Assembly: GCA_030679255.1 (NCBI GenBank)
Contig: JAUXTO010000025.1
Span: 8,719 to 72,718 of the forward strand
DNA: 64,000 bases
Source: Candidatus Gottesmanbacteria bacterium
GTDB taxonomy: Bacteria > Patescibacteriota > Microgenomatia > UBA10105 > UBA927
Direction of reading: 5' to 3'
Shown here: positions 4,015 to 63,430 of the stretch, piece after piece
Layout: each line of letters starts with the position of its first letter
How positions within the stretch are numbered: position 1 is the first letter of the stretch
The notes under the pieces: generated by a model
The model's database searches: none
Told to the model about the DNA's origin: nothing
What the model saw: the letters and a program-made list of their open reading frames with translations, nothing else
Translations under genes and position numbers: made by a program

Positions 4015-4086
4015 GGTGGCTGTAGCTCAAAAGTAGAGCATCCCGTTGTGGGCGGGAGTGAGCGGGAGCGTTACCCGTCAGTCACC
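4015..4086 (+). tRNA. tRNA-His-like element (anticodon GUG, with G-1), non-canonical D- and T-loops. Either a genuine tRNA-His or a tRNA mimic in the his-operon leader.
   Basis: Hand fold: G-1 then acceptor GGUGGCUG/CAGUCACC (one G-U pair), D-stem GCUC/GAGC, anticodon arm UCCCG-UUGUGGG-CGGGA with GUG at positions 34-36, T-stem GCGGG/CCCGU. The 5' half is near-identical to E. coli tRNA-His (GUGGCUAUAGCUCAG...). The D-loop lacks GG and the T-loop is AGCGUUA instead of TPsiC. It ends 14 nt before the hisG SD (taaggagg). Confidence 0.45.
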
Positions 4087-4100
4087 CTAAGGAGGAATTT

Positions 4101-4979
4101 ATGACAGCAATAAACAACAAAAATCTAAAATTAGCGATGCAAAAAGAGGGGCGGCTGACCGAAGAAACGCTTGAATTTTTGCGTAAATCCGGCCTGGAAT
4201 TTGAAAGCTACAACCAAAGGCTTTTCTCGACATGCAGAAATTTTCCATTAGAGATCCTCTACGTGCGAGATGATGACATACCAGACTATGTAGCCTCCGG
4301 AACGGTTGATCTGGGGATCCTCGGACAAAATATACTCTCTGAGGAGAGACCGAAGGTAAAAAAACTCCTCAATTTACGTTTTGGGTTTTGTACGCTTTTT
4401 ATTGCGGTCCCAAAGGAATCACAGATCAATAATCTCTCCGATCTCAATGGCAAAACCATCGCGACAACCTACCCTAACTCTACCCAAAATTTTCTTCTAA
4501 AGAATAAAGTTGAAGCAAAAATAGTAACAATAAGCGGATCTGTGGAAATCACCCCTGCCCTTGGCGTAGCCGATGCCATATCCGACCTTCTCTCTACCGG
4601 AAGCACCCTGGCTCTGAATGATTTGCGGCCACTGACTAAAGTCTACGACTCCGAAGCCATACTCATCGCAAATGAAGAAAGTGTCGCATCCAAAAATAAA
4701 ATGATGCTCCTTAATAATCTTCTGACGAGATTTAAAGGAGTACTCTCAGCAAAAAATTACAAATATATACTGATGAGCGCTCCCGAAGAAAAACTCACGA
4801 AAATTAAAAAAATGCTGCCATCTCTTATTTTCCCCACGCTCGCAACGATTTCAAAAAATGGTTTTACGACGCTTCAAACCGTTATAAAAGAAGATGTACT
4901 TTGGGACATAACAGGCAAACTCAAAGCCGCAGGTATATCGCAAATCTTCGTATTGCCGATAGAAAAAATTATTTCGTAA
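4101..4979 (+). CDS. hisG: ATP phosphoribosyltransferase, long form
   Basis: 292 aa with HisG motifs (LAMQKEGRL, DIPDYVASGTVDLGILGQN) and the C-terminal regulatory domain. A strong SD sits upstream. Confidence 0.9.
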   Translation: MTAINNKNLKLAMQKEGRLTEETLEFLRKSGLEFESYNQRLFSTCRNFPLEILYVRDDDIPDYVASGTVDLGILGQNILSEERPKVKKLLNLRFGFCTLFIAVPKESQINNLSDLNGKTIATTYPNSTQNFLLKNKVEAKIVTISGSVEITPALGVADAISDLLSTGSTLALNDLRPLTKVYDSEAILIANEESVASKNKMMLLNNLLTRFKGVLSAKNYKYILMSAPEEKLTKIKKMLPSLIFPTLATISKNGFTTLQTVIKEDVLWDITGKLKAAGISQIFVLPIEKIIS

Positions 4980-4982
4980 AAT

Positions 4983-6280
4983 ATATGAACATCTACTCAC
5001 TCAGCGCCATACCGAACACTGTATATGACCGTGTCATGAAGCGATCATATGGATCCAGAGCGGACATACTCCCTCGCGTTCAACAAATTTTTGAAGATGT
5101 AAGAAAATACAAAGACCGTGCACTTTTCCAAGAATATGAAAAGCGATTCGGCTTAACTCCTTCATTTTCTTTAAAAATATCACGCAAGGAAATAAAAAGT
5201 GCGTATAAGAGGGTTGACTCGTCTCTGGTTCAAGCGCTCCAACAGATGATAAAAAATATTACCAAAGTAACTACGGCTCAGATGAAGTCAAAAACTGAGA
5301 CTGCAGTATCTACGGAAAAAGGGGTCAGAGCATGGCGGGAATGGAGAGCAATAGAAAAGGTTGGCCTCTATATTCCCGGCGGAAAAGCTGTGTATCCATC
5401 TTCAGTGCTCATGAGTGGGATACCTGCGATGGTTGCCGGATGCAAAGAAGTCATTCTCTGCTCCCCTCCTTCGGATAAAGGAAAAATTCCAGCGATTATC
5501 CTCGTCGCGGCAGATATGATCGGTATTTCAAATATTTACTCCGTAGGCGGCGCTTACGCGATTGCGGCGCTGACGATTGGCACAGAAAGCATACCAAAAG
5601 TCGACAAAATTATTGGTGCGGGAAATGCGCTTGTCACGACCGCTAAAATACTAGCACTTGAAACCACAAGTATCGATATGCCGGCAGGACCGTCTGAGGT
5701 ATTCATCATCGCAGACGAATCCGCAAATCCTTCCTACATCGCTTCGGATCTTCTGGCAGACGGCGAACACGGAGATGACTCGGCGTGCGTCCTCGTCACA
5801 ACATCATCTGATGTCGCCAAGAGCACGATACTTGAAATAGAAAAACAATTAATACACTTGCCTACTGCATCTCGTGTTCGCGAATCGCTAAGAAAGTACG
5901 GACTCGTTGCCGTTGTCAATTCTCTAGAGCAAGCAATCATTTTTGCAAATGACTACGCACCGGAGCACTTGGAAATTATGACAAAAAATCCAGTCGCGGT
6001 ATCTAAAAAAATTAATAATGCTGGCTCTGTTTTTATCGGAAACTATACATCCAAATCGGCAGGAGACTATGCTACCGGTGCGAATCACATATTGCCGACC
6101 GGTGGCATGGCAAAATCATATCCTCCTCTAGGTGTAGACGCGTTTGGGAAATGGATGCAGATCCAAGAATGCACAAAACAGGGCTTAAAAAATATTCAAA
6201 AAACAATTGAAGCCATCGCGACAGTGGAACAATTGCCAGCACACAAAAATTCTACATCAATACGATTTCAAAGTATATGA
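4983..6280 (+). CDS. hisD: Histidinol dehydrogenase
   Basis: HisD family motifs (GGKAVYPSSVLMSGIPAMVAGC, NHILPTGG). Start chosen at MNIYSLS just after the hisG stop. Confidence 0.9.
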
Positions 6281-7839
6281 ATAATCTAGTATTACAAAGA
6301 ATACGAAATATGAAACCATACGCGCTTCCAATCTCTGAGAGGCGTGCGTATCGTGGAATGCTGTTAGACTTTAACGAGCGCACAGTATCGACTTCTCCTA
6401 TCATCAAAAAAGCTATATTAAACCTATTGAAATCAGACACATTGCAGCTATACCCAGAATACGGTGGACTTGAGGTAAAGTTAGCGAAATATGCAGGCGT
6501 CGATTCAGATCAGATATTAATTACAAACGGATCTGACCAAGGGATTGATCTTGTATTTCGTACATTTACAGAAACCGGAGACACTGTCATCATTCCAACT
6601 CCCAGTTTTGCAATGTTCTCTCAGTCTGCTTGTATATCAGGAAATAAAATTCTCCGTCCTATGTATGCTAAGAAGAATTTGTCGTTTCCTCTCGATGACG
6701 TACTGTCAATGATAAATGGATCCATAAAACTCATTGTCCTCTGTAACCCAAATAACCCTACCGGCACAGCAGTGTCAATTGATGGTATTGAGCAAATTGC
6801 GCAGAGGGCACCTAATGCAATAATTCTTGTCGACGAAGCATATTTTGAATTTTCAGCACTTACAGCTGTTACGCTCATTGAGAAATACCCAAACATTATC
6901 GTAATACGAACACTTTCAAAAGCCTTTGGCCTCTCGTCACTGCGTATCGGCTATATTGTTGCATCAAAAAATTACATTAATGAGTTTTCTAAAATTCGAG
7001 GACCGTTTGATGTAAATATGATCGCATACACAGCTTCACTGGCAGCACTTGAGGACCTAAAAGACATGCAAAGGTATGTGAATGAAGTAATGAAAAAATC
7101 CAAGCCGATGATTGAAAAATTTTTCTTTGAAAACGATATAAGATTTTATGCATCTGCTGCTAACTTTATTCTTTATAAACCAATTCAAGAACAGGAAGAA
7201 AAAATATTAAGAGACAACGGCATCTTAGTACGTGCACAAGATAAAACTAATATAGAAAATACCCTTCGTTTAACTATAGGAACTATTGAACAGATGAAAC
7301 AATTCATAAAAGTTTACCGAAATAAGATATTGAAAAAATCGAAATCAATAAAATACGCGTTTATAGATCGCGACGGAACATTAATTTTTGAGCCTCAAGA
7401 TACATTTCAGATTGACAGCATAGAGAAGTTAAAAATTTTAGACGGAGTAATCCCTTCACTCAATAAACTCAGTAAGAAAGGGTACGAACTTATTATGGTA
7501 TCAAATCAGGATGGCTTAGGAACGTCGGCTTTTCCACTTGCAAATTTTGAAGTGCCTCAAAACAAAATGCTAGAAATTTTTGAGAAAAATGGTATTACAT
7601 TTACCAAAATATATATCTGTCCACACATGCCATCGGAAAGCTGTATGTGCAGGAAACCAAAAATCGGACTTGTAAAAAAATTTCTAAAAGTGAACCAGAT
7701 AGACAAGAATAACTCCTTTGTCTGTGGAGATCGAGAGACTGACAGACGCTTTGCAAAAAATATCGGAATCAAATATGTCTCTATGAAAACGAATGGAAAT
7801 TTTCAAACAGCTCTATCACAAGGAGGTATAATTGTATGA
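6277..7839 (+). CDS. hisC: Histidinol-phosphate aminotransferase fused to a C-terminal HAD-type histidinol-phosphatase domain
   Basis: The first ~350 aa are class-II aminotransferase (NPNNPTG, SKAFGLSSLRIGY). The C-terminal ~165 aa is a HAD phosphatase (FIDRDGTL, GmhB/HisB-N-like). The start is ATGA-overlapped with the hisD stop. Confidence 0.8.
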   Translation: MNNLVLQRIRNMKPYALPISERRAYRGMLLDFNERTVSTSPIIKKAILNLLKSDTLQLYPEYGGLEVKLAKYAGVDSDQILITNGSDQGIDLVFRTFTETGDTVIIPTPSFAMFSQSACISGNKILRPMYAKKNLSFPLDDVLSMINGSIKLIVLCNPNNPTGTAVSIDGIEQIAQRAPNAIILVDEAYFEFSALTAVTLIEKYPNIIVIRTLSKAFGLSSLRIGYIVASKNYINEFSKIRGPFDVNMIAYTASLAALEDLKDMQRYVNEVMKKSKPMIEKFFFENDIRFYASAANFILYKPIQEQEEKILRDNGILVRAQDKTNIENTLRLTIGTIEQMKQFIKVYRNKILKKSKSIKYAFIDRDGTLIFEPQDTFQIDSIEKLKILDGVIPSLNKLSKKGYELIMVSNQDGLGTSAFPLANFEVPQNKMLEIFEKNGITFTKIYICPHMPSESCMCRKPKIGLVKKFLKVNQIDKNNSFVCGDRETDRRFAKNIGIKYVSMKTNGNFQTALSQGGIIV

Positions 7840-8426
7840 ACCGAAAAGCAATAATAAGCAGGAAAACAAACGAAACTGACATTTCAGTAGACCTGAACAT
7901 TGACGGAACAGGAAAAAGAACTATAGATATACCGATAGGATTTCTAACGCACATGTTGGATCTATTGTCCAAACACGGCATGTTTGATCTTTCCATAAAA
8001 GCTCGCGGAGATACAAATATAGACGAGCACCACACGGTCGAAGACATTGGCATTGTCTTGGGCGAGGCGTTCGCAAAAGCTCTTGGGGATAAAAAGGGCA
8101 TCAGTCGATATGGCTTTTTTATACTCCCGATGGATGAAGCAGTGGCGACGGTGGCTGTCGATTTTGCGGGACGATATGCGTTTACGCTCGACTGTCCATT
8201 TTCCCGAGAAAAGGTTGGTGATTTACCAACAGAGCTCGTCTATGATTTCTGGGATGCATTTGCCCAAAACGCAAAGGTAAATTTATTTATCAAAGTCGAA
8301 AACGGCCGGAACGATCACCACAAAATTGAAGGGGTATTTAAAGCAACTGCCCGGGCAATACGTATGGCGTGCGGATGGGACGAGCGGGCAATCAATCAAT
8401 TACCATCAACAAAAGGAACGTTATGA
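7836..8426 (+). CDS. hisB: Imidazoleglycerol-phosphate dehydratase
   Basis: IGPD motifs (IDEHHTVEDIGIVLGEA, GRNDHHKIEGVFKA). Confidence 0.9.
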   Translation: MNRKAIISRKTNETDISVDLNIDGTGKRTIDIPIGFLTHMLDLLSKHGMFDLSIKARGDTNIDEHHTVEDIGIVLGEAFAKALGDKKGISRYGFFILPMDEAVATVAVDFAGRYAFTLDCPFSREKVGDLPTELVYDFWDAFAQNAKVNLFIKVENGRNDHHKIEGVFKATARAIRMACGWDERAINQLPSTKGTL

Positions 8427-9037
8427 TAACCATCATTGATTATGGATTGGGAAATATCGGAAGCGTGGCAAACACGCTTACGCGACTTGGCCAAACGTAC
8501 CAAATAAGCGCTGACCCAGCAGAGATCAGATCTGCTGATGTGCTGTTATTGCCGGGTGTCGGCGCGGCGGGGGTTGGCATGAAAAATTTACGGGATCGAG
8601 GGCTCGACGTTGCTATTCGACGTGCAATACAAAACGGAAAACCATTTCTTGGAATTTGCCTCGGTATGCAATTGTTGTTTGACTATAGCGAAGAAGCCGA
8701 TACTCCATGTCTGGGAATACTCAAGGGATCGGTGAAAAAATTTCAGCGCGAACGGAAGGTGCCCCAAATCGGATGGAATCTAGTAATTCCGGTCAAGACA
8801 AATCCGAATGCTGTGCGATTGTTTGCCGGCATTCCGGAAAGAAACGCGTTTTATTTTGTAAACAGTTATTACCCAATTCCGGCTGATACGTCAGTCGTTG
8901 CGGCGACAACCGAATATGGCGAGCAGTTTGCAAGTGTCGTTGCGATAAAAAATATCGTTGCGACACAATTCCACCCGGAAAAAAGCGGCGAAACAGGACT
9001 CAGATTGTTACAAAATTTTATAAAGGAGTATGTATGA
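8423..9037 (+). CDS. hisH: Imidazole glycerol phosphate synthase, glutamine amidotransferase subunit
   Basis: [15 protein letters not shown]..., GICLGMQ and a catalytic H near the C-terminus. The start overlaps the hisB stop. Confidence 0.9.
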
Positions 9038-9798
9038 CAACCAAACGCATTATTCCATGTCTGGATATGACGCAAGGAAAAGTGGTGAAAGGGATTCAAT
9101 TCGTGGATTTCCGGGATGCCGGAGATCCGGTCGTGCTTGCCAAAAAATACAGTGAAACAGGAGCGGATGAATTAGTATTTTTGGATATCACGGCCACGGT
9201 TGAAAATCGGCCAATTCTTTTGGATGTTGTGGAGAGAACGGCAAAAAATGTAACTATCCCTTTTTCCGTAGGCGGCGGTATCAGAACTATCGAAGATATG
9301 CGTCAAATATTACTAGCCGGAGCGGATAAGGTATCGGTAAACACTGGAGCGGTAAATAACCCTGCGCTCATTACGAAATGTGCCAACGCATTTGGCAATC
9401 AGTGTGTAGTACTGTCTTTAGATGCAAAACAGATGGCACCAGGACAGTGGAATGCTTTTATTAACGGTGGCATGAAGGATTCTGGTAAATCAGCGATTGA
9501 TTGGGCAAAAGAAGCCACGCGGTTAGGTGCGGGCGAAATTCTTCTGACGAGTATCGATCAAGACGGTACAAAAAAAGGATTTAATATAGGTCTTACAAGA
9601 GAAGTTTCTCGGAACGTATCCGTACCGGTGATAGCTTCAGGAGGAGCCGGGAAAAAAGAGGATTTTTTAGATGTGTTTGTAAAGGGTGAAGCGGACGCTG
9701 CTCTTGCCGCATCATTGTTTCACTTTAGCGAATTGACAATCAAGGAGCTTAAACAATATCTCAAAGAACAAAATGTCATAATACGGGAGGCTTTATGA
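9034..9798 (+). CDS. hisF: Imidazole glycerol phosphate synthase, cyclase subunit
   Basis: [17 protein letters not shown] and ASGGAG match HisF. No hisA lies between hisH and hisF. Confidence 0.9.
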
Positions 9799-10427: not shown

Positions 10428-11627
10428 ATGGACCTACTAAAAAATATAGACGCCCTTCTCATTACTAACCCGACGAATATCCGGTATCTCACTGGATTCG
10501 TCGGTGCGGCGCCGGAGGAGAGGGAAGCATACTGCTTGCTTACCAACTCTCAAACGTATCTCTTCATTAATGCGCTTTATACTGAATACGCAAATACACT
10601 TGTTTCACCATCTAAGCAAGGCAGTAATAATCCAATAATCCAATTCTCAAATAATCCAATAAAAATAGTCAAAATTTCCCGCGGGGAACCTTTTGCAAAA
10701 AAACTTGGTGATGTTCTGAAAAGGTCTCACCTTGCCAAACCGCAAGGTGAGACCTTAAAAGGAATTCGCCTCGGATTTGAAGAGAGCAACTTGACCGTCG
10801 CAGAATTCGAAAAATTAAAAAAAGAATTGCCCGGCATCACCCTTGTCCCAACACAAAACAGAATTGAAGAACTCCGGATGATCAAGCGCGATGATGAAAT
10901 CGAAAACATCCGACAGGCTGCAAAGATTACGGATCAGTGTTTTACCTATCTTACCACCATACTAAAACCTCGTGTTACTGAACTTGAAATCGCCTGGAAA
11001 ATCGAGTCCTTCATTCGCTCCCGCGGCGCGGGTCTTGCCTTCTCCCCCATCGTCGCGTTTGGCTCAAACACCTCGCAACCGCACTATTCACCAAAATCTA
11101 GCCTTAAAAGGTCTCACCTTTTAAGGCTAAAAAATCAAGATATTGTGCTACTGGATTTCGGCGCGAAGATTAACGGCTACTGCAGCGACATGACCCGCAT
11201 GGTGTTTATTGGCAAACCCGAGGCTGAATGGGTGAACGCTTACGAAACGGTTTCGAGAGCGCAAACCATGGCTCTCGAGTATCTAGCCTCAAGGCCTGGC
11301 CTTGAGGCTACGGGTGATAAAGTCGATCAGATCGCACGGGATATCATTGAAAATGCAGGGTTCCCTACCTATCCCCACTCTCTGGGTCACGGGGTGGGAT
11401 TGGATATTCATGAAGCACCACGATTGAGAACCAATCCTTCAATAAATTCAGAACAACCAGTTACATCCCGCGCTTCGCAAAGACTCATGCCCGGCATGGT
11501 CGTCACGGTTGAGCCAGGAATATATATCGAAGGACAGTATGGCGTACGCCTCGAGGATTTGATACTCTTGAAAGAAGACGGGATTGAATTACTATCAAAA
11601 TCAAATAAACATATCACTATACTTTAG
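10428..11627 (+). CDS. M24 family Xaa-Pro aminopeptidase carrying three in-frame palindromic-element insertions
   Basis: M24 motifs (DFGAKINGYCSDMTR, HSLGHGVGLDIHE, VEPGIY). Palindromic elements are embedded at 10717-10762, 11098-11130 and 11283-11310; one of them encodes KSSLKRSHLLRLKNQ. Confidence 0.8.
   Translation: MDLLKNIDALLITNPTNIRYLTGFVGAAPEEREAYCLLTNSQTYLFINALYTEYANTLVSPSKQGSNNPIIQFSNNPIKIVKISRGEPFAKKLGDVLKRSHLAKPQGETLKGIRLGFEESNLTVAEFEKLKKELPGITLVPTQNRIEELRMIKRDDEIENIRQAAKITDQCFTYLTTILKPRVTELEIAWKIESFIRSRGAGLAFSPIVAFGSNTSQPHYSPKSSLKRSHLLRLKNQDIVLLDFGAKINGYCSDMTRMVFIGKPEAEWVNAYETVSRAQTMALEYLASRPGLEATGDKVDQIARDIIENAGFPTYPHSLGHGVGLDIHEAPRLRTNPSINSEQPVTSRASQRLMPGMVVTVEPGIYIEGQYGVRLEDLILLKEDGIELLSKSNKHITIL
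10717..10762. repeat. REP-like family 1 derivative (extended palindrome around ggtctcacc / ggtgagacc)
   Basis: tgaaaaggtctcaccttg-ccaaaccg-caaggtgagaccttaaaagg. It lies inside pepP and is in frame. Confidence 0.7.
11098..11130. repeat. REP-like family 1 element
   Basis: ctagccttaaaagg-tctca-ccttttaaggctaa. In frame in pepP (SLKRSHLLRL). Confidence 0.8.
11283..11310. repeat. Family 1b palindrome (same outer arms, centre aaggcctggcctt)
   Basis: ctagcctcaaggcc-t-ggccttgaggcta. The same 13-bp core appears twice at 2587-2644. Confidence 0.7.
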
Positions 11628-28311: not shown

Positions 28312-29740
28312 TCCGTACTCCTTCCGGTGTATCTTCGATCATGTAGCCTTTCTCTTTAATTATTTTTCTCACCGCATCGGCATCTCCAAACTTTTTCTCC
28401 CGACGATATTCTTCACGCTGATCCGATAGATTTTGAATTTCTTCCGGAATTTTTTCCTGAGTCCTACGTCCTACATCCTGAGTCAATCTCAGTCCCAACG
28501 CTTCGTCAAAATCCAAAAGCAGATCATACTTATCGGTACTAGGAATATTGGACTTCGCGACTTCCCACGCGACGGCCAACGCTTGGGGCATATTAAGATC
28601 GTTCCCGAGCGCCTGATCAAACTTCTGTCGAAAACCATCCACCTTTTCCAATTTTTCATTTGATAATGTATTTCGATTGGAAATTGGAAATTGGAAATTG
28701 GACATTGCGGCGCGAAGCTCTCCTAATGCGTTCTGCGCGCCGGATAGCGCTTCCCACGTAAAATTCATAGGTTTTTTATAATGCGCAGTGAAATAAAAGT
28801 ATCGAAGTGCCAACGGATCAAATCCTTTGGCGATTACATCGTCAACCGATACGATGTTTGCCAAGGATTTACTCATTTTCGTGCCATCAATCATCAGGTG
28901 TCCGTGATGGATCCAGAACCGCACAAATTGTTTACCCGTCGCCCCTTCACTTTGTGCAATTTCATTGGGGTGATGGACGGCCATGTGTTCCGTGCCGCCG
29001 GTATGGATGTCGATTGTATCCCCCAGATACTTCATCGCCATCGCCGAACACTCAATATGCCACCCCGGGAATCCATCGCCTTTACCCTGACGTCCCGGAA
29101 TGGGAAACGGGCTCTCCCAGTGCATGACGTGATCCGCAAACCGGCCAACGCGTTTGAACCAAAGCACAAAATCCGCGGGATGCTTCTTTGCTTCGCCGGT
29201 GTTAATATCATCGCGTACCGCTACATTTTTCTCCTCAAGTTTTTGGCCAAATAATGAGCCGTATCCGGGAAACTTCGTCACGTCAAAGTACACCGCTTCC
29301 GGCGTATCGTAGGCGATGCCCTTTGCCAATAGTTTTTCGATGAGAGCAATCTGTTCAGGCACATGCTCAGTTGCCTTACATATTACGGTGGGGCGAAGAA
29401 TGCCCAGCTTATCCATCGAATCGTAAAAATTTTTGGTAAAAAACTCCGCTACCTCCCACACGGTCTTCCCTGTTTTCTTCGCTCCCTTTTCCAGCTTGTC
29501 CTCTCCCTCATCCGCGTCGCTTACCAAATGCCCTACATCCGTCACGTTTTGGACGTGGGTCACGTCATACCCGAACCGCGTGAGCACGCGACGTAGAATA
29601 TCATCACCCACATACTTTCTCCCGTGCCCGATATGAGTATAATCATAGACCGTCTGACCGCACGTATAGAACCCTACCTTTGGAGGGTGGAGAGGAACAA
29701 ATTCTTCAAGCTTTTTCGTAAGCGAGTTATAAAGTTTCAT
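28295..29740 (-). CDS. cysS: Cysteinyl-tRNA synthetase
   Basis: HIGH ([10 protein letters not shown]) and KMSKS motifs. A 7-bp tandem repeat x4 at 28676-28707 encodes [10 protein letters not shown]. Confidence 0.9.
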
Positions 29741-47989: not shown

Positions 47990-48190
47990 ATGTCTCTCGG
48001 TGATGAATGGCCAGAACTATTAACCGTCCGTGAAGTCGCAAAAATACTGCGCGTCTCGCCTCTTACCATCAAACGATGGGGTAAACGCGGGAAGCTCCCA
48101 GCAATCCGCATTAACTCTCGCGGGGACCGGAGATACAAAAAGGAAGCCGTGATGTGGCTTTTGGGTATGCAACAAAAGGGCGCGTTATAG
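47990..48190 (+). CDS. Excisionase/MerR-family HTH DNA-binding protein
   Basis: LLTVREVAKILRVSPLTIKRWGKRGKLPAIRI matches the HTH_17 pattern. Confidence 0.6.
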   Translation: MSLGDEWPELLTVREVAKILRVSPLTIKRWGKRGKLPAIRINSRGDRRYKKEAVMWLLGMQQKGAL

Positions 48191-49093
48191 CGCTACATGC
48201 TTTAGTATTTCTGAGGCAGAAACCGGATCCACGACATTCACATTAAGCCCCGTCCCCAACTCAAACCCTGCGCGGTGGATGAAACGCGGGATGATGCGGA
48301 TATACCAATTTACTCCGTGATACATATAAAAATTATAGCCAAAGGGCATCTCTGCATGATGGATAACTGACGCAGGATCATCATATACGGCCCGCACCCG
48401 ACGGAGCGCCTTCTGAAGTACCTCTGCTAAATCCGGGACCTCCTCATCCGTCAGATCCCCAAACTTAGTGCCTACGCCTTTGGGAGCAATCCAGACTTCG
48501 TAGGGCCACTGAGAAAAATCAGGACAGTAGGTACGGTAATACGTATTCTCTTCGACCACATTGGCCAACGGCTCACGGGAAAGGGTATCAAGATTTATCT
48601 GGCGCGGGACAACGACAAGTTGGCTATGCGGATGATTGAGGCTTGCTCCCGCGTGGAGACCGTGATTGCAAAATATCATCACCTGCCCGGTATCCTGATG
48701 CGTCCGGTAGCGCTGCCTGTAGGTCTCCATCACGCGTACAACCTGATCAAGAGGAAGATCTTCTAAATCTTTTTGATCATCCGTACTATGGATGATCACT
48801 TCATGGATATCGGTGATCGGATAGAGGTTGGGTACCACGCGCACGAGCCATCCCGGACCGTCTTTGACGCCTTCCCCAATCCGGAAGACTTCCGGAGGAG
48901 TAACGCTTTCATTACCCGGACAGAATGGACAGACATGGGTTTTAACCGGAGTGGCATCATCGGGCTTGCCCGCCGACCTGTCCACCGAAGCCTCGGCGGA
49001 GGAGGAAGCTTCAGCGAAGGTGGGGCGTTTAGTCCGGCTTGGCGCAATCACTACCCACCGCTGCGTTTTGACATCAGGAACGTATTTGGCCAT
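48185..49093 (-). CDS. galT: Galactose-1-phosphate uridylyltransferase (HIT family)
   Basis: CPFCPGNE and HPHSQ motifs. Confidence 0.8.
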   Translation of the reverse strand: MAKYVPDVKTQRWVVIAPSRTKRPTFAEASSSAEASVDRSAGKPDDATPVKTHVCPFCPGNESVTPPEVFRIGEGVKDGPGWLVRVVPNLYPITDIHEVIIHSTDDQKDLEDLPLDQVVRVMETYRQRYRTHQDTGQVMIFCNHGLHAGASLNHPHSQLVVVPRQINLDTLSREPLANVVEENTYYRTYCPDFSQWPYEVWIAPKGVGTKFGDLTDEEVPDLAEVLQKALRRVRAVYDDPASVIHHAEMPFGYNFYMYHGVNWYIRIIPRFIHRAGFELGTGLNVNVVDPVSASEILKHVAL

Positions 49094-49118: not shown

Positions 49119-50270
49119 TTATGAAAGGAATTGTGTGACAATTGCAAGTACTTCTTGTTTTTGTACTTCTGTAACCACCACTTCCACGATTCCCTCCTCG
49201 GGCCCGCCTGCAACGCTATGCGTACCCGTCTGCAGCGATGCAGCAGCTTCGGGCAGGGCATTGCGGGCAGGCTGACCATAATAAAGAATACTTCCCAATG
49301 GAGCGTATTGGATGACCGGTAGGACTAAGAGGTCTTCTTCGCCGTTCACGATGATGGCGTGATGCGTATCTCCTGGTCTTACTTTTCTGGCAAGCGCTGC
49401 TTGTATTGCCACCACGGCATCACGACTAATAAACCCCGGTCCACTATGCAAAAATTTAGCCTTAAAAGGTGAGACCTTTTGAGGCTGAAGTCTGTTTACT
49501 ATTTCCGGGAATGGTTTCCGGCCTACTTGGCCATCAATGACGGCCAAGCACGGCATGACGCCGAGATCCAACACGGTCTTCGTCGATAAATCCCCGACCG
49601 TTATGACGAAATCGTGTTCGTGTGACCGTATCGAGACGTCTATCGCTTTTCCACGGAGAATCTTCCCCATCGGCTTGCCGAGCGCGGCGCGCAGCCTCTC
49701 CGGCATGATGAGTCTCCCGTCCCCGTCAATCTCTCCCTTTCGCAGCCGTGTCGAAGAAATCGGCTTTCCATCCTCGGCCGGTACGATCGGCACTTCGATG
49801 AGCGCGAGCGGTGACAGGGCCAGGCCCTGTCTGAGACCATTGATACGCTCTCCGGTCGAACGGTTCTCATATGTGACAATGAGCGCAGTGAGATCCCTCA
49901 TGCTCGCCGCAGGTTCGTGAGGATCAGAGATCGGGATAATGGTCGTCCGATTGAAATATCGTCGCTTGTGCAACCATGCTATGAGATAGCATTTCCTTTC
50001 TTTATATGTGCTTATTTTTTTTTGAATTTGCACATTGGGATTTGTTTGGTCATTGGGATTTGGAAATTGGGATTTATACTTTACAACAAACTCGTCTGTT
50101 GTCAGCCCGATAGTCACCCGCTCGCCTACCCGAAATGCCTCAGATAGAATTGATCGGTGCCCCGCGTGGAGCCCGTCAAACGTCCCGGCGACGAAAATGT
50201 GGTGATATAAATAATCTTTTAGAAGTTTATTATTAAGGATAGTCACAGAGGAATAATACAATATGATCAC
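49119..50270 (-). CDS. Fusion: archaeal-type phosphopantetheine adenylyltransferase-like (HxGH) N-domain plus a DUF359/dephospho-CoA kinase-like C-domain
   Basis: The N-domain has FVAGTFDGLHAGHRSIL...IGLTTDEFV. The C-domain has VITVGDLSTKTVLDLGVMPCLAVIDGQVGRKPF. It hosts a 10-bp repeat block at 50032-50075 and a REP-like element at 49447-49478. Confidence 0.5.
   Translation of the reverse strand: MIILYYSSVTILNNKLLKDYLYHHIFVAGTFDGLHAGHRSILSEAFRVGERVTIGLTTDEFVVKYKSQFPNPNDQTNPNVQIQKKISTYKERKCYLIAWLHKRRYFNRTTIIPISDPHEPAASMRDLTALIVTYENRSTGERINGLRQGLALSPLALIEVPIVPAEDGKPISSTRLRKGEIDGDGRLIMPERLRAALGKPMGKILRGKAIDVSIRSHEHDFVITVGDLSTKTVLDLGVMPCLAVIDGQVGRKPFPEIVNRLQPQKVSPFKAKFLHSGPGFISRDAVVAIQAALARKVRPGDTHHAIIVNGEEDLLVLPVIQYAPLGSILYYGQPARNALPEAAASLQTGTHSVAGGPEEGIVEVVVTEVQKQEVLAIVTQFLS
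49447..49478. repeat. REP-like family 1 element
   Basis: ttagccttaaaaggtgagaccttttgaggct. In frame in the PPAT/DPCK-like gene (QPQKVSPFKA). Confidence 0.8.
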
Positions 50271-52092: not shown

Positions 52093-52473
52093 TTAGCGGA
52101 ACGTTTGGAGAGATTCGGAGAGTTTGGCGTATTTATCATCGATCCCACGAAATGTTTCATCGTCCATACTTCCCCGCCCCCAGGCAACCGCCAGGTGGGT
52201 ACGAGTTTTAGCCACTTGCCCCACCGCTTGCATCATGAGATCACGGCCTACGCGCCGGTCTGCCCGCGTCAGGCTGTCGGCAATCGTCGCCGCGACATTT
52301 TGTGCGGATGAAAGCAATCCTTCAATCACGTCGTTATCATGAGATTGGCCCTCTTCGGAACTATCAAGCATCTCATGTATATCCATGAGTGCCACGTAGG
52401 ATTCCTGCCAAAGTTTATGTTCGTGAAAGTTGATCATAAAACGATTATAATCGTTCTCACGCATGAAATCCAT
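52093..52473 (-). CDS. Four-helix-bundle protein (23S rRNA intervening-sequence protein-like)
   Basis: Start chosen at MDFMRENDYNRFMINFHEHKLWQESYVALMDIHEML. The N-terminal ~66 aa of the longer ORF look non-coding. Confidence 0.45.
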   Translation of the reverse strand: MDFMRENDYNRFMINFHEHKLWQESYVALMDIHEMLDSSEEGQSHDNDVIEGLLSSAQNVAATIADSLTRADRRVGRDLMMQAVGQVAKTRTHLAVAWGRGSMDDETFRGIDDKYAKLSESLQTFR

Positions 52474-53635
52474 CCCCTTTTGGAATCCCCTGCCCGAGTA
52501 CGAGAAAATTGCGACCGAAGTGCATACGGCAATCGCCCGCGTCCTCTCCTCGGGCACGCTCATCCTGGGGCCGGAAGTCGCAGCGTTTGAAACATCCTTT
52601 GCGCAATACATTGGCTGCCGGTATGGTATTGGGGTGGGTAATGGGACGGATGCCATCATTCTCGCCCTCAAAGCGCTCGGAGTGGGTCAGGATGACGAAG
52701 TGATTACCGCCGCCAATACAGCTATCCCCACCGTCGCGGCAATCATGGCGGTTGGTGCAGTACCCAAGCTCGTTGACGTACTCCCTGATTCCCTGCTTAT
52801 GGATCCCGCCAAACTTCAAGGCGCCATTACAAAGCGTACCCGCGCAATAATCCCCGTCCATCTCTACGGACAATCGTGCGATATGGACACGATTATGAAG
52901 ATCGCAACATCCAAAAAGGTATTCGTCATCGAAGACTGCGCGCAGGCGACGGGGGCCGAGTATAAGTCAAAAGTCTCCGCCAAAGGCGGACCAGCCTATG
53001 GCCGGAAAAGTCGAAAGTCAAAAGTTGGTTCGATGGGGAGTATCGCAACATTTTCGTTTTATCCGACCAAAATCATCGGCTGCTACGGCGATGGGGGGAT
53101 GATTACGACCAATAATCCCGCTCTTGCCAAGCGGGTACGAAGTTTACGCATGTATGGCACCGAGGGAACGTACAACGCTATAATCGAAGGAGGAATTAAT
53201 TCACGACTCGATGAACTCCAGGCTGCCATCCTATCTGTCAAATTGAAAAACATCAAACGCTGGATCAAGGAGCGGCAACGTCTCGCCCATCGCTACAATC
53301 AGGGTCTCAAGAGTACACCACTTATTCTTCCGTCTCAGCCTCAAAAGGTCTCACCTTTTGAGGCTAATTCCCATGTTTTTCACCTCTATATCATCCGACA
53401 CACGAAACGCATAGAAATTCAAAAATATTTAAGAATGCACGGTATCGGCACGGCTATCCACTACCCGGTCCCCATCCACCTTATGCCCGCGTACAGCAAA
53501 TTAGGATACGAAAAAGGAGATTTTCCCGTCGCCGAAGGGGCGTGTCATTCTGTGCTTTCGCTTCCGCTCTATCCGGGGCTGACTGACGACGATCAGGATC
53601 GTATCATCAATGCGCTTCGCGCGTACTTCAAATAA
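52463..53635 (+). CDS. DegT/DnrJ/EryC1/StrS family sugar aminotransferase with an in-frame REP-like insertion
   Basis: IPFWNP...GNGTDAI...SFYPTKIIGCYGDGGMITT. The element at 53336-53367 encodes SQPQKVSPFEAN. Confidence 0.85.
   Translation: MKSIPFWNPLPEYEKIATEVHTAIARVLSSGTLILGPEVAAFETSFAQYIGCRYGIGVGNGTDAIILALKALGVGQDDEVITAANTAIPTVAAIMAVGAVPKLVDVLPDSLLMDPAKLQGAITKRTRAIIPVHLYGQSCDMDTIMKIATSKKVFVIEDCAQATGAEYKSKVSAKGGPAYGRKSRKSKVGSMGSIATFSFYPTKIIGCYGDGGMITTNNPALAKRVRSLRMYGTEGTYNAIIEGGINSRLDELQAAILSVKLKNIKRWIKERQRLAHRYNQGLKSTPLILPSQPQKVSPFEANSHVFHLYIIRHTKRIEIQKYLRMHGIGTAIHYPVPIHLMPAYSKLGYEKGDFPVAEGACHSVLSLPLYPGLTDDDQDRIINALRAYFK
53336..53367. repeat. REP-like family 1 element
   Basis: cagcctcaaaaggtctcaccttttgaggctaa is a perfect palindrome. 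In frame in the DegT gene. Confidence 0.8.
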
Positions 53636-55069: not shown

Positions 55070-55105
55070 CATAAATCTAGCCTTAAAAGGTCTCACCTTT
55101 TGAGG

Positions 55106-55843
55106 CTAATCTTCATCAATTTCTGCTTTTGCAATATACCGAATACTTTCAACTTCAAAATCATAATCCTGTATCTCGACAAACTCTTTATATGACTGTA
55201 ATCCCGTTTTCGCTTTAGAGAAATAAGAAAGAATTGTCTTTGGCTTCACCCACTCTTGATGAATCTCTCCCAGGTAATTGGGATACGATGACGGTTGTAA
55301 CCGCAATATTTGAGATCGCTTTTTTGGATCTAGCCTTAAAAGGTGAGACCTTTTGAGGCTAAACGGATTACGGTGGATATATCGGGATACATGAAGAAGC
55401 TGCGCGTCATTAGTAATCAAGACTGCCTTATACGTTCCTTGAAAGACAGACCCTACTCGCTTGTGCCGGCTGTTTTCATACATCGTAAACCGAGTCATCA
55501 CAGATTGTACAAATTCACTCATGTCTGACTCCCCTTTTTGCTGGAGAAGAAAATGGAAATGATTGGGCATCAGGCAATAGGCCAAAAGATCAATCTTACC
55601 AGTAAAATTCTTTAGTCGAAGCTCTCGTGCTGCTACCCCACGTTCTTTATAGGAAAGGGATTCCTCTGACGCCATCTCCCGAAGTTTTTTTTCATCTTTT
55701 GGACGTAATGCGGTTGCAATATAAGAAAGGAATACTCGATAATCCTGATCATCAATGAATATATCCGCTTTATTCACTCCTCGATTATAGACATGATACA
55801 CCCCATCAGAGACGTACGATTTGATGATATTTTTGGCAGGCAT
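55106..55843 (-). CDS. REP-associated tyrosine transposase (RAYT; IS200/IS605-like HuH Y1 transposase), with a REP copy inserted near the catalytic Tyr
   Basis: YHVYNRGVNKADIF, HuH MPNHFHFLL, and RYIHRNP (the Y motif). SLKRSHLLRL is inserted immediately after NPF, via the element at 55330-55362. Confidence 0.8.
   Translation of the reverse strand: MPAKNIIKSYVSDGVYHVYNRGVNKADIFIDDQDYRVFLSYIATALRPKDEKKLREMASEESLSYKERGVAARELRLKNFTGKIDLLAYCLMPNHFHFLLQQKGESDMSEFVQSVMTRFTMYENSRHKRVGSVFQGTYKAVLITNDAQLLHVSRYIHRNPFSLKRSHLLRLDPKKRSQILRLQPSSYPNYLGEIHQEWVKPKTILSYFSKAKTGLQSYKEFVEIQDYDFEVESIRYIAKAEIDED
55330..55362. repeat. REP-like family 1 element inside the RAYT gene
   Basis: ctagccttaaaaggtgagaccttttgaggctaa. 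Confidence 0.8.
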
Positions 55844-55906
55844 GCCATCAGTATGCGCGAAGTGATAAAAAAATACAATAGCCTTAAAAGGTGAGACCTT
55901 TTGAGG

Positions 55907-57031
55907 CTAAGTCTTCAAAACCTTCTGATAGACTTTTTCGTAACCCTCGACCATTTTCTCTACGGTAAAGTTTTCCTCGACATGCCTCCGGCAAGCGGCG
56001 CGGTCGATTTCTCCGATGCGTTTGACGGCTTCGACCAGCCCCTCTACCCCACGTTTTTTGATGACCCACTTCCCGTCTTTATTGGTAGTATTGGTAGTAT
56101 TTGTCTGATTTGTAGTATTGGTAGTATTATCATTTGGTTCTACGATAAACCCCGTCACTCCGTCCTTGACGATTTCAGAAACTGACCCCCGGTTGTAGGC
56201 GATGACCGGCGTCCCGCACGCCATGGCCTCAATCATCACGAGCCCAAACGGCTCTTCCCAGTGGATGGGGAATAGGAACGCTTTCGCATTACCTAAAAAA
56301 TCATACTTCAACGGACCAATCATTCGATCTAATAGACGAATCATCGCGCCATCAACTTCAGCGTTTATGCGTTTCAGATATGCTTCCTGGCCCTTTTCCT
56401 CAAAACCAACAAGCGTCAGCACGTCTCCAGTTTTTTTTGCCGTCATGATTGCATCAATTGCCCCTTTATTTTCCGAAAAACGTCCCATCCAGGCTACATA
56501 CGATGGTTTCTGTGGATGGAAAACAAATGGAACGTTTAAAGCGTCAATACCGTTGTAAACTACGCTCGAGAAATGGATGTAGGGCAACGCTCGTTTGGCG
56601 CCTTCGGATAATGCTATAAAAAATTCATGAGGAAATCGTTCGAATACTTTCTGTTCCCGCATCGCAAAATTAGCGCCGTGTGTGGTTGAAACGACGGGTG
56701 GACGAACCGCATGGATATAGGGTAATAATACGTGCTCTATATGACTATGTACGATATCAAACTGACCGAGCTCCGGAACTATTTTTTCTGCATACGCATG
56801 CTGAAGCGCAACACTTTCACGATCAAATAGTGATCGACCGGATTCTTTGAGCGATGGGCCACTAAAGCGCAGCAATACACGCGGAAACACTGACTTATCC
56901 GGAGCAAACACCGTAACCGTGTGGCCTCTCGCCTTGAGCCCCAAGGTGACATCCCGCACCACGGCTTTTATACCGATTGCCTTCTCAGAATCAAACGCAG
57001 ACCAATTGGGTAAAATTTGCGCAACGTTCAT
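55907..57031 (-). CDS. GT4 family glycosyltransferase
   Basis: EEPFGLVMIEAMACGTPVIAYNRGSVSEIV. An internal TNTTNQTNTTNTTN stretch comes from ttggtagtat repeats at 56081-56129. Confidence 0.85.
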   Translation of the reverse strand: MNVAQILPNWSAFDSEKAIGIKAVVRDVTLGLKARGHTVTVFAPDKSVFPRVLLRFSGPSLKESGRSLFDRESVALQHAYAEKIVPELGQFDIVHSHIEHVLLPYIHAVRPPVVSTTHGANFAMREQKVFERFPHEFFIALSEGAKRALPYIHFSSVVYNGIDALNVPFVFHPQKPSYVAWMGRFSENKGAIDAIMTAKKTGDVLTLVGFEEKGQEAYLKRINAEVDGAMIRLLDRMIGPLKYDFLGNAKAFLFPIHWEEPFGLVMIEAMACGTPVIAYNRGSVSEIVKDGVTGFIVEPNDNTTNTTNQTNTTNTTNKDGKWVIKKRGVEGLVEAVKRIGEIDRAACRRHVEENFTVEKMVEGYEKVYQKVLKT

Positions 57032-62449: not shown

Positions 62450-63430
62450 TTAGCTTCGCCAAGTTTGACTTGACGAAGCTAGCTTTTTCCCGAGCACCAG
62501 CCAAAGGAATTGGAGCAACCGTAGTTGTCTCCCAAACCGCCAAGGTTCAATGACCAGCCGCCAGAGCCACTCGAGGCCAAGCGATCGGAAAAAATGCGGT
62601 GCGCGGGGCACTCGTCCGGCAATGATGTCAAAACTGCCGCCGACGGACATGAAAACGATGCTTTTCCTGTCATCCCGGGCTTGACCCGGGATCCATTCTT
62701 TTTTCTCTGGATTCCGGCTCAGAGGCCGGAATGACAAAATATGGGCAAGCTGCTCTATAAAAAATTCCTGCTTCGGTGCCCCCAACCCCACGAAGACGAT
62801 GCATATCCTTGTTTTTCTTATCTTTTCAATAATATCTTTCGTGTATTGGTAGTATTTGAGTATTGTCCCGCTGCTGTTTCCGATATTTATTGGATTACAG
62901 CAGCGTGGATCCCGCTTCGCGGGAGTAGCATTTGACATTGGTAGTATTGGCATTTCCTCCGGCTCCTCCGCCCACCCCACCAACCCCGGATACTTTATTT
63001 TCAGTTGCCCGAGCGCCTCCTGCGCCACTCCATCTCTCCCGCCGATGAGCGCGACCGGCCAACCCTTTGCCGCGGCCATCGCCACCAGATCTTCCATAAA
63101 CTCCACACCGGGGATTCTTTGCAAACCTATGTCCTGAGTCTTATGTCCTACGTCCTTCCCAAGAAAACGCAGCGCGGCGACAAGACCTATCCCGTCCGGG
63201 ATTGCCACATCAGCACCATTAAGGATCTCAGCAAAATGTTTATCGGTTTGCGCGGCGATGATCTGTTCCGGATTCGGTGTGACAATAACGAGGGGTTTCC
63301 GGTTTTTATTGGATAATTGGATAATTGGATAATTGGATAATTCTAAGTACTTCCGTACATGTTCTACTATTTCATCCTTTGGACTCGCCGTCACCGATAT
63401 TCCGAGTATTTTTGTTGATGCCAACTTCAT
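62450..63430 (-). CDS. WecB/TagA/CpsF (GT26) family glycosyltransferase with in-frame repeat insertions
   Basis: LVIVTPNPEQII...DVAIPDGIGLVAALRFLG...GLGAPKQE. The element at 62669-62735 encodes EKKEWIPGQARDD. An 8-bp repeat x4 sits at 63309-63342. Confidence 0.7.
   Translation of the reverse strand: MKLASTKILGISVTASPKDEIVEHVRKYLELSNYPIIQLSNKNRKPLVIVTPNPEQIIAAQTDKHFAEILNGADVAIPDGIGLVAALRFLGKDVGHKTQDIGLQRIPGVEFMEDLVAMAAAKGWPVALIGGRDGVAQEALGQLKIKYPGLVGWAEEPEEMPILPMSNATPAKRDPRCCNPINIGNSSGTILKYYQYTKDIIEKIRKTRICIVFVGLGAPKQEFFIEQLAHILSFRPLSRNPEKKEWIPGQARDDRKSIVFMSVGGSFDIIAGRVPRAPHFFRSLGLEWLWRLVIEPWRFGRQLRLLQFLWLVLGKKLASSSQTWRS
62669..62735. repeat. Family 2 multi-hairpin element, in frame in the WecB/TagA gene
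   Basis: gtcatcccgggcttgacccgggatccattcttttttctctggattccggctcagaggccggaatgac. Confidence 0.8.

Follow-up and report, generated by a model that had tools for sequence, protein, structure and literature searches.

Can one bacterial gene, assembled from the archaeal versions of two enzymes, complete the synthesis of coenzyme A (CoA), and was it imported recently? The question is raised by a complete, uninterrupted open reading frame (ORF) of 383 aa at 49119..50270 on the minus strand of a 64-kb window (the whole stretch of DNA analysed here, 64,000 nt), which joins a phosphopantetheine adenylyltransferase (PPAT) domain to a dephospho-CoA kinase (DPCK) domain of the DUF359 family. The gene very probably encodes a functional CoA synthase of two domains. 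The analysis computed domain identity, motif conservation, fold, distribution, synteny and, in other members of the Candidate Phyla Radiation (CPR), linkage to CoaBC and pantoate kinase, and from these we infer both activities. The original prediction had placed the ORF at these positions and quoted two peptides from its product, all of which are present exactly on the minus strand. The host is a CPR/Patescibacteria bacterium, because a 100% identical protein belongs to a metagenome-assembled genome (MAG) of Candidatus Gottesmanbacteria. In the NCBI record, that protein is encoded on a contig of 75 kb, is labelled "pantetheine-phosphate adenylyltransferase" and is 375 aa long, starting at the GTG at 50244-50246, which lies eight codons downstream of the most upstream start of the window gene (GTG, 50268-50270; stop codon, 49119-49121). 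In most homologues the protein begins where residue 21 lies (MYHH...), and there the codon of the window gene is TTA; residues 1-20 form an N-terminal extension that is weakly conserved and is modelled with low confidence by AlphaFold2.

The N-terminal half (residues 22-188; 49707..50207, minus strand) is a PPAT domain of the archaeal/eukaryotic type with the HxGH nucleotidyltransferase fold, as identified by NF001985, PF01467, 3do8 and Foldseek. In particular, the NCBIfam model of archaeal-type PPAT (NF001985; COG1019) aligns its positions 4-154 of 157 with residues 22-189 at 125 bits, above its cut-off of 104, and the bacterial coaD model TIGR01510 reaches 12 bits against a cut-off of 103.3. 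Pfam CTP_transf_like (PF01467) covers residues 27-178 with 38.1 bits (gathering threshold, GA, 21), and the A. fulgidus PPAT (3do8) is the closest PDB sequence match for residues 26-187 (E = 1.6e-14). The nucleotide-binding signature HAGH (H35-x-G-H38; 50157..50168, minus strand) keeps H35, G37 and H38 invariant across an 81-sequence alignment; the second nucleotidyltransferase motif, ISSTR (residues 171-175; 49746..49760, minus strand), aligns with the ISSTR of 3do8, and its S172, S173 and R175 are conserved in at least 90% of the 81 sequences. The domain therefore resembles archaeal PPAT (COG1019; T. kodakarensis TK2128; 3DO8) in model, motifs and fold (TM-score 0.79-0.81), but differs from it by the fusion to DPCK and by a 19-residue low-complexity insert after helix 59-66. 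The proposal that it belongs to this type rather than to CoaD is borne out by the passing of NF001985, the failure of TIGR01510 and the closer fold of 3do8. FAD synthetase, which the original prediction had named as an alternative classification, was rejected; PF06574 scores 21.3 bits (GA 27) and covers only residues 24-53, about 30 residues around the HxGH.

The C-terminal half (residues 189-383; 49122..49706, minus strand) is a DPCK domain of the DUF359/arCOG04076 family, identified by PF04019, NF041125, 8jvc and Foldseek. Pfam DUF359 (PF04019) matches residues 230-336 with 79.5 bits (GA 25), so that both Pfam families proposed for a profile search, CTP_transf_like and DUF359, score above their gathering thresholds. 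The best PDB sequence match is the GTP-dependent DPCK of T. kodakarensis (8jvc; residues 191-337, E = 3.7e-16), and together with the predicted fold these matches confirm the DPCK-like domain that had been suggested. HMMER alignment to 8jvc makes Asp227 (49590..49592), Asp246 (49533..49535) and Asp313 (49332..49334, all minus strand) the counterparts of T. kodakarensis Asp48, Asp67 and Asp125; all three are invariant in the 81 sequences, Asp313 within an invariant GEEDL motif. In the T. kodakarensis enzyme TK1697, these residues were proposed to be catalytic, and growth was strongly slowed in the D48A and D67A mutants (Shimosaka et al. 2019, PMC6650551). Overall, the residues invariant across the 81 sequences are H35, G37, H38, G226-D227, D246, R251, S276-G-P-G279, G310-E-E-D-L314 and Y331-G-Q-P334, and at the level of sequence neither half appears degenerate. 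A match to MraZ over residues 180-213 stays below its threshold (18.1 bits against 23) and was dismissed; the stretch aligns with the N-terminal segment of the T. kodakarensis DPCK.

DUF359 was introduced in 2019 as the archaeal solution for the final reaction in CoA synthesis, as a family distantly related to thiamine pyrophosphokinases, and a fusion to PPAT was the evidence that led to its experimental identification as a DPCK (PMC6650551). The window protein shares with TK1697 (EC 2.7.1.237; 8JVC/8JVF/8JVG) the family, the three aspartates, the fold (TM-score 0.76-0.83) and 26-28% identity, but TK1697, at about 176 aa, is a protein on its own. Bacterial CoaD and CoaE carry out the same two reactions that are predicted for the fusion, but CoaE is a P-loop kinase with another fold; besides the failure of TIGR01510, the CoaE profile (PF01121) gives zero signal in the fusion, with no match to the C-terminal domain at E<=1 in either Pfam or NCBIfam. 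In eukaryotes, COASY carries PPAT and then DPCK on one polypeptide for the last two steps, with a kinase domain that is a P-loop CoaE homologue. The arrangement is the same and the PPAT domains are of the same broad type, but the COASY kinase is not homologous to DUF359 (general knowledge and PMC6650551), and COASY and the window-type fusion therefore arose independently, by convergence.

The predicted structure supports both assignments. An AlphaFold2 model built on the 81-sequence alignment has a mean predicted local distance difference test score (pLDDT) of 84.2 and a predicted TM-score (pTM) of 0.75, with block means of 95-98 over most of the PPAT core and 80-97 over the DPCK core; its low-confidence stretches all coincide with inserts, apart from the N-terminal extension, which is also low. 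A Foldseek search of the PDB places 8jvg, 8jvc and 8jvf at the top (E = 2.8e-13 to 1.4e-10; TM-scores of 0.76-0.83, normalised to the target), followed by 3do8 (0.79-0.81, normalised to 3do8), while bacterial CoaD structures reach only 0.58-0.65. As modelled, the protein is closer to the T. kodakarensis DPCK and the A. fulgidus PPAT than to bacterial CoaD. By family membership, the N-terminal domain would transfer AMP from ATP onto 4'-phosphopantetheine, yielding dephospho-CoA, and the C-terminal domain (DUF359), a Rossmann variant of the thiamine-pyrophosphokinase-like kind, would produce CoA by phosphorylating the 3'-OH of the ribose. The phosphate donor is probably GTP, by analogy with TK1697, and the intermediate may be channelled between the domains.

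Gene clusters in another Patescibacteria lineage (L051 1286-8319 and L068 7707-14744) are positive support for the role of the fusion in CoA synthesis. There, the fusion is followed by genes for GreA, an LPG_synthase_C-like protein, CoaBC (TIGR00521, 385 bits), a pantoate-kinase-like GHMP kinase, a GNAT protein and an AMP-binding enzyme that is acyl-CoA-synthetase-like. The GHMP kinase matches archaeal pantoate kinase far better than anything else (NF040725, 154.6 bits) and bears the name pantoate kinase at NCBI, and its nearest named relatives, from Woesearchaeota and Nanoarchaeota, are about 50% identical; the named matches of the pantoate-kinase search include no Gottesmanbacteria. The closeness of this kinase to DPANN proteins suggests that some CPR carry further archaeal-type CoA genes. 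A protein of about 300 aa with no Pfam or NCBIfam match (L051 391-1302) lies directly upstream of the fusion and overlaps its start in L051, L068 and L037, whereas in L054 the distance is about 4 kb; this protein could be a pathway partner that has gone unrecognised.

Hundreds of CPR species carry the fusion as a conserved core gene. A phmmer search of 1.84 billion cluster representatives (50% identity clusters) returns 235 at E<=1e-30 and 1321 at E<=1e-10, and both Pfam domains are present in every one of the 120 best database homologues, of which those with a name are Gottesmanbacteria or "Patescibacteria group". Among GTDB species-representative genomes, there are at least 497 loci with a relative of the fusion, mostly in Patescibacteria. 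The best 80 of these include bacteria (Gottesman-, Woese-, Roizman- and Levybacteria, Parcubacteria and Saccharibacteria) and archaea (Micrarchaeota, other DPANN, and Poseidoniales/Thalassarchaeaceae of marine group II/III), and the archaeal loci align over both domains. Moreover, the gene order ribulose-phosphate epimerase (RPE), DeoC, fusion, GalT-like and helix-turn-helix (HTH) genes, then L7/L12 and L10, is common to 28 loci, with 35-58% identity between their fusion proteins and that of the window. The GC content of the gene (0.50) and its third-position GC content (GC3, 0.516) lie within one standard deviation (SD) of the 33 other window genes (0.482+-0.039 and 0.503+-0.074). Because of this synteny, the ordinary composition and the presence in at least 497 species genomes, the fusion is an old, vertically transmitted core gene of Gottesmanbacteria and many other Patescibacteria, and not a recent import. 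In a neighbour-joining tree of the fusion sequences (100 bootstraps), support is 100% for the Poseidoniales clade, 81% for the clade with Gottesmanbacteria synteny and 78% for the DPANN group; the archaeal sequences together are monophyletic in 0 of 100 replicates, and the placement of DPANN relative to CPR has 25% support, with deep nodes unresolved. An ancient exchange between bacteria and archaea is possible, and we make no claim on its direction.

Nor is the architecture as unusual as the original prediction assumed, because it is known from uncultured archaea and CPR proteins are already named PPAT by NCBI. In particular, PPAT-arCOG04076 fusions occur in uncultured marine group II/III Euryarchaeota, for example AIF21550.1 (Shimosaka et al. 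2019, PMC6650551). These have identical domains in the same order, with PPAT N-terminal and DUF359 C-terminal, and the Poseidoniales loci L062-L077 are 29-32% identical to the window protein over residues ~22-334; they differ in that the window host is a CPR bacterium, in their separate clades and in the three extra loop inserts of the window protein. The CPR fusion proteins are thus already in public databases, where they are partly annotated (most are named as PPAT only). Within the literature searched for DPCK, DUF359 or arCOG04076 in CPR/Patescibacteria, no paper discussing the enzyme there was found.

Some relatives have longer N-termini. The single ORFs of L046 (9509-11053) and P0260 encode three-domain proteins of 514-530 aa, in which an extra CTP_transf_like domain (GRFQPFHKGH, NMNAT-like) precedes PPAT and DUF359, and L058, L040, L052 and P0136 have extensions of 55-120 residues that match no Pfam family.

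Three variable or inserted segments, about 54 residues in sum, interrupt the two domains; all are in frame and in loops of low pLDDT, two of the three lie in the DPCK domain, and the catalytic residues are untouched. Insert i (residues 67-85, SQFPNPNDQTNPNVQIQKK; 50016..50072, minus strand) occupies a PPAT-domain loop whose length varies among homologues (pLDDT ~50). It is AT-rich and of low complexity, with short repeats of the TTGGGAT type (50053-50075), the enclosing 75 nt (50007-50081) having 31% GC; relatives carry other low-complexity strings at this site. Insert ii, in a DPCK-domain loop (49457..49487, minus strand), is a palindrome resembling the repetitive extragenic palindromes (REPs) of other bacteria, read in frame as QPQKVSPFKAK (residues 264-274), and its hairpin has a 14-bp stem and a 3-nt loop (-13.7 kcal/mol, z -4.4). 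Insert iii (residues 335-358, ARNALPEAAASLQTGTHSVAGGPE; 49197..49268, minus strand; pLDDT 52-57) lies between the YYGQP and GxVEV strands and forms a GC-rich nested hairpin (-43.2 kcal/mol; 66% GC over the enclosing 93 nt, 49188-49280); it is present in only a few relatives and missing from most homologues, and no further copy, as of a repeat family, was found in the 64-kb window. The two repeat insertions originally noticed are real, namely the palindrome at 49458-49486, with six copies, and the TTGGGAT-type repeat, to which the third insert (49197-49268) is now added.

The window is without any other CoA gene: tblastn queries with the E. coli proteins CoaD, CoaE and Dfp find none in it, and Pfam scans of 40 window ORFs find no CoaE, CoaD or second PPAT, DFP or PanK domain. 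The lack of a bacterial coaD or coaE there speaks for the fusion as a functional CoA synthase, but several results weigh against one. No upstream CoA gene that could be a source of 4'-phosphopantetheine was seen in the window. Further, the Thermococcales equivalogs score far below their cut-offs (73.1 bits against 290 for PPAT; 76.6 against 300 for NF041125, the GTP-dependent DPCK, aligned to residues 189-336), so that exact equivalence falls short of NCBI's strict criteria; the failure of NF041125, a clade-specific model, counts against strict equivalog status and not against family membership. The three loop insertions could lower activity, and bacterial coaD and coaE may exist in the rest of the genome (~1 Mb), outside the window. 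If such a P-loop CoaE performed the last step, only the PPAT half might be active, with a regulatory or degenerate DUF359 half. The NCBI name of most members, the two insertions in the DPCK domain and the confinement of the scans to the window's part of the genome would fit that alternative, but the 81 sequences show no variation in the three aspartates or in the motifs GEEDL, SGPG and YYGQP, DUF359 is the stronger Pfam match of the two, the predicted fold superposes on the T. kodakarensis DPCK and both DPCK insertions fall in low-pLDDT loops, which together make it improbable. A tblastn search of the window and 82 loci (1.33 Mb, including the flanks of relatives) also finds no CoaE and two marginal CoaD-like matches (L055 and L034), although this is a test of low power; with one coaE per ~1 Mb genome at a random place, only ~1.3 matches would be expected, and the absence is thus undemonstrated. 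It is highly improbable that the fusion acts on another substrate pair, as an archaeal-style FAD synthetase (RibL-like) or cytidylyltransferase with a thiamine-pyrophosphokinase-like kinase. The distant kinship of DUF359 to thiamine pyrophosphokinases (PMC6650551) and sub-threshold matches to FAD_syn (21.3 bits), ribF, glycerol-3-phosphate cytidylyltransferase and RfaE point that way, but these matches span ~30-45 residues around the HxGH and lie far below their cut-offs, while NF001985 passes, the fusion clusters with CoaBC and pantoate kinase in L051 and L068, and it was this architecture that led to the experimental identification of DPCK (PMC6650551).

The history of the gene bears on two further alternatives. 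The original prediction had offered horizontal acquisition or a lineage that uses the archaeal solution; the second stands, on at least 497 genomes, the synteny of 28 loci and normal GC, and the first, taken as a recent transfer, does not. A recent gain from an archaeon, or the misbinning of an archaeal contig into a bacterial MAG, would account for two archaeal-type domains and for the same fusion in DPANN and Poseidoniales, and MAG labels can be unreliable, as in the pair L041 and L043 described below. However, the fusion is surrounded in the window by bacterial-type genes (NusG, L10, L7/L12, an RF-1 domain protein and RecR), its synteny reaches down to 35% protein identity with GC and GC3 within 1 SD, and the Gottesmanbacteria-type sequences form a clade (81%). 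A recent event is already contradicted, and this explanation is very improbable. That the gene is decaying, inactivated by its insertions, is hardly credible: it does carry three lineage-specific inserts and an N-terminal extension of 20 residues, and the usual position lacks a canonical start, but the frame is intact, the inserts are in frame and every invariant residue is kept. The REP insert, moreover, has long been tolerated, because it is shared with orthologues at 56-60% (L085, L087) and 53% (L001) identity.

With the gene taken as a functional CoA synthase of archaeal type, current understanding is not overturned, and the result is a modest extension of known biology. The annotation is corrected, since NCBI names the PPAT half only, and the reduced CPR bacteria are predicted to be at least able to finish CoA synthesis themselves, with a compact bacterial CoA synthase that should be experimentally tractable. 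The fusion also adds a clear case to the genes common to CPR and DPANN or other archaea. A wider proposal is plausible, although we would place it somewhat short of probable: that Gottesmanbacteria and much of Microgenomates/Patescibacteria lack bacterial CoaD and CoaE and rely wholly on the fusion as their sole route, that lineages without CoaBC use it to make CoA out of 4'-phosphopantetheine that they scavenge from the environment or a host, and that the family, together with the archaeal-type pantoate kinase of some CPR, was anciently exchanged between CPR and DPANN or other archaea. If so, the 'archaeal' DPCK would be a trait common to two ultra-small radiations and not an archaeal signature.

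The palindrome of insert ii belongs to a multicopy element. In the window, it is present in six copies of 29-31 nt with a perfect stem (0 expected by chance; hairpin z-scores from -3.8 to -5.1), three of them associated with a gene on the minus strand (55106..55843) for a 245-aa Y1/IS200-like transposase that resembles the REP-associated tyrosine transposases (RAYTs). This gene matches PF01797 with 35.2 bits (GA 23), and its sole NCBIfam match, NF047646 (REP-associated tyrosine transposase), has 50.6 bits, below the cut-off of 80. One copy lies directly 3' of the gene (55079..55107), its terminal TAG being the gene's stop codon; another lies directly 5' (55880..55908), inverted relative to the first and with the opposite loop orientation, its TAG end being the stop codon of a glycosyltransferase ORF (55907..57031); a third lies within the gene (55332..55360), in frame as SLKRSHLLRL. 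Apart from insert ii, the remaining copies are in frame as QPQKVSPFEA in a DegT-family aminotransferase gene (53337..53365) and as SLKRSHLLRL in an M24 peptidase gene (11100..11128). The palindrome and transposase are a REP/RAYT (REPtron)-like system with intragenic copies. Because the same palindrome flanks its gene on both sides, the RAYT-like protein, encoded 5.6 kb away, is probably the mobilising enzyme for insert ii, which would have entered a surface loop of the fusion, as the other two segments did.

Intragenic REPs are documented in other bacteria, as are the Rickettsia palindromic elements (Di Nocera et al. 2013, PMC3733652). The window element is like these systems in being a short multicopy palindrome with inverted copies at a Y1 gene, in-frame copies and TAG stop codons. 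It differs in its tag, in its CPR host, in its very narrow distribution and in a transposase below the RAYT cut-off; its ends read [C/T/A]TAGCC, with a conserved TAG but a variable preceding base, in place of the GTAG/CGTC tag. The exact element is rare, with seven matching stretches in a metagenome collection, mostly from one groundwater site. The RAYT-like orthologue with its flanking inverted REPs is syntenic in L085 and L001, and in L085, a 60%-identical relative, the element occupies the same five positions by synteny. A strict search for the window REP in the first 82 loci gave no match, and relaxed hairpin searches found variants and unrelated palindromes in the same loop. For example, L001 and L087 have variants at the DPCK loop (GAAGGGT.../...ACCCTTC) with compensatory stem changes, that of L001 matching the copies around its own RAYT gene; L008, L010 and L006 have other palindromes there, and most other relatives have none. 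Because different relatives carry variant or unrelated palindromes at this loop, it is a permissive site that has been occupied repeatedly or persistently. Mobile palindromes inserted in frame thus remodel surface loops of essential CPR enzymes, which affects gene calling and alignment.

Similar segments occur elsewhere in the window. The M24 peptidase gene (10428-11627) has at least four in-frame repeat-derived segments: a AATAATCCAAT simple repeat (10626-10665), a second palindrome type (10725-10752, TCTCACCTTGCCAAACCGCAAGGTGAGA), the REP at 11100-11128 and a REP-like variant (11284-11310, TAGCCTCAAGGCCTGGCCTTGAGGCTA). The second palindrome type has a relative in the L010 DPCK loop. Low-complexity inserts (ASSSAEASVDRSAGKPDD; SAKGGPAYGRKSRKSKVGS) that are GC-rich, prone to hairpins and resemble insert iii are present in the neighbouring GalT/HIT-like gene (48185..49093, at 48960-49020) and in the DegT gene (52463..53635). 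AT-rich short tandem repeats of the TATTGGTAG, AATAATCCAAT and ATTGGAA types lie at 56071-56139, 10626-10665, 28660-28700 and 63303-63342; within genes, such as the glycosyltransferase 55907..57031 (NDNTTNTTNQTNTTNTTN), they appear as low-complexity inserts rich in N, T, Q and P, as does insert i.

Some of the records compared carry doubtful taxonomic names. L041 ('Candidatus Norongarragalinales archaeon') and L043 ('Candidatus Kaiserbacteria bacterium') are 99.3-99.6% identical in DNA, and the gene for a class I CCA-adding enzyme of archaeal type (PF09249 and PF21133) lies on the contig, so that the bacterial name probably stems from faulty binning. Likewise, MAGs titled 'uncultured Gammaproteobacteria bacterium' among TPA_asm records (L003, L004, L008, L012, L015-L019, L024 and others) have the Gottesmanbacteria synteny and fall inside CPR clades, and their titles appear to be wrong placeholders.

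A search of the whole window with Rfam at gathering thresholds gave no match, and the window contains one tRNA gene. This tRNA-His (4016-4087) precedes a histidine biosynthesis cluster (4101-9798) that encodes HisG, two further ORFs, IGPD, a glutamine amidotransferase and His_biosynth. CPR genomes are usually thought to be poor in amino-acid biosynthesis, which makes the cluster stand out.

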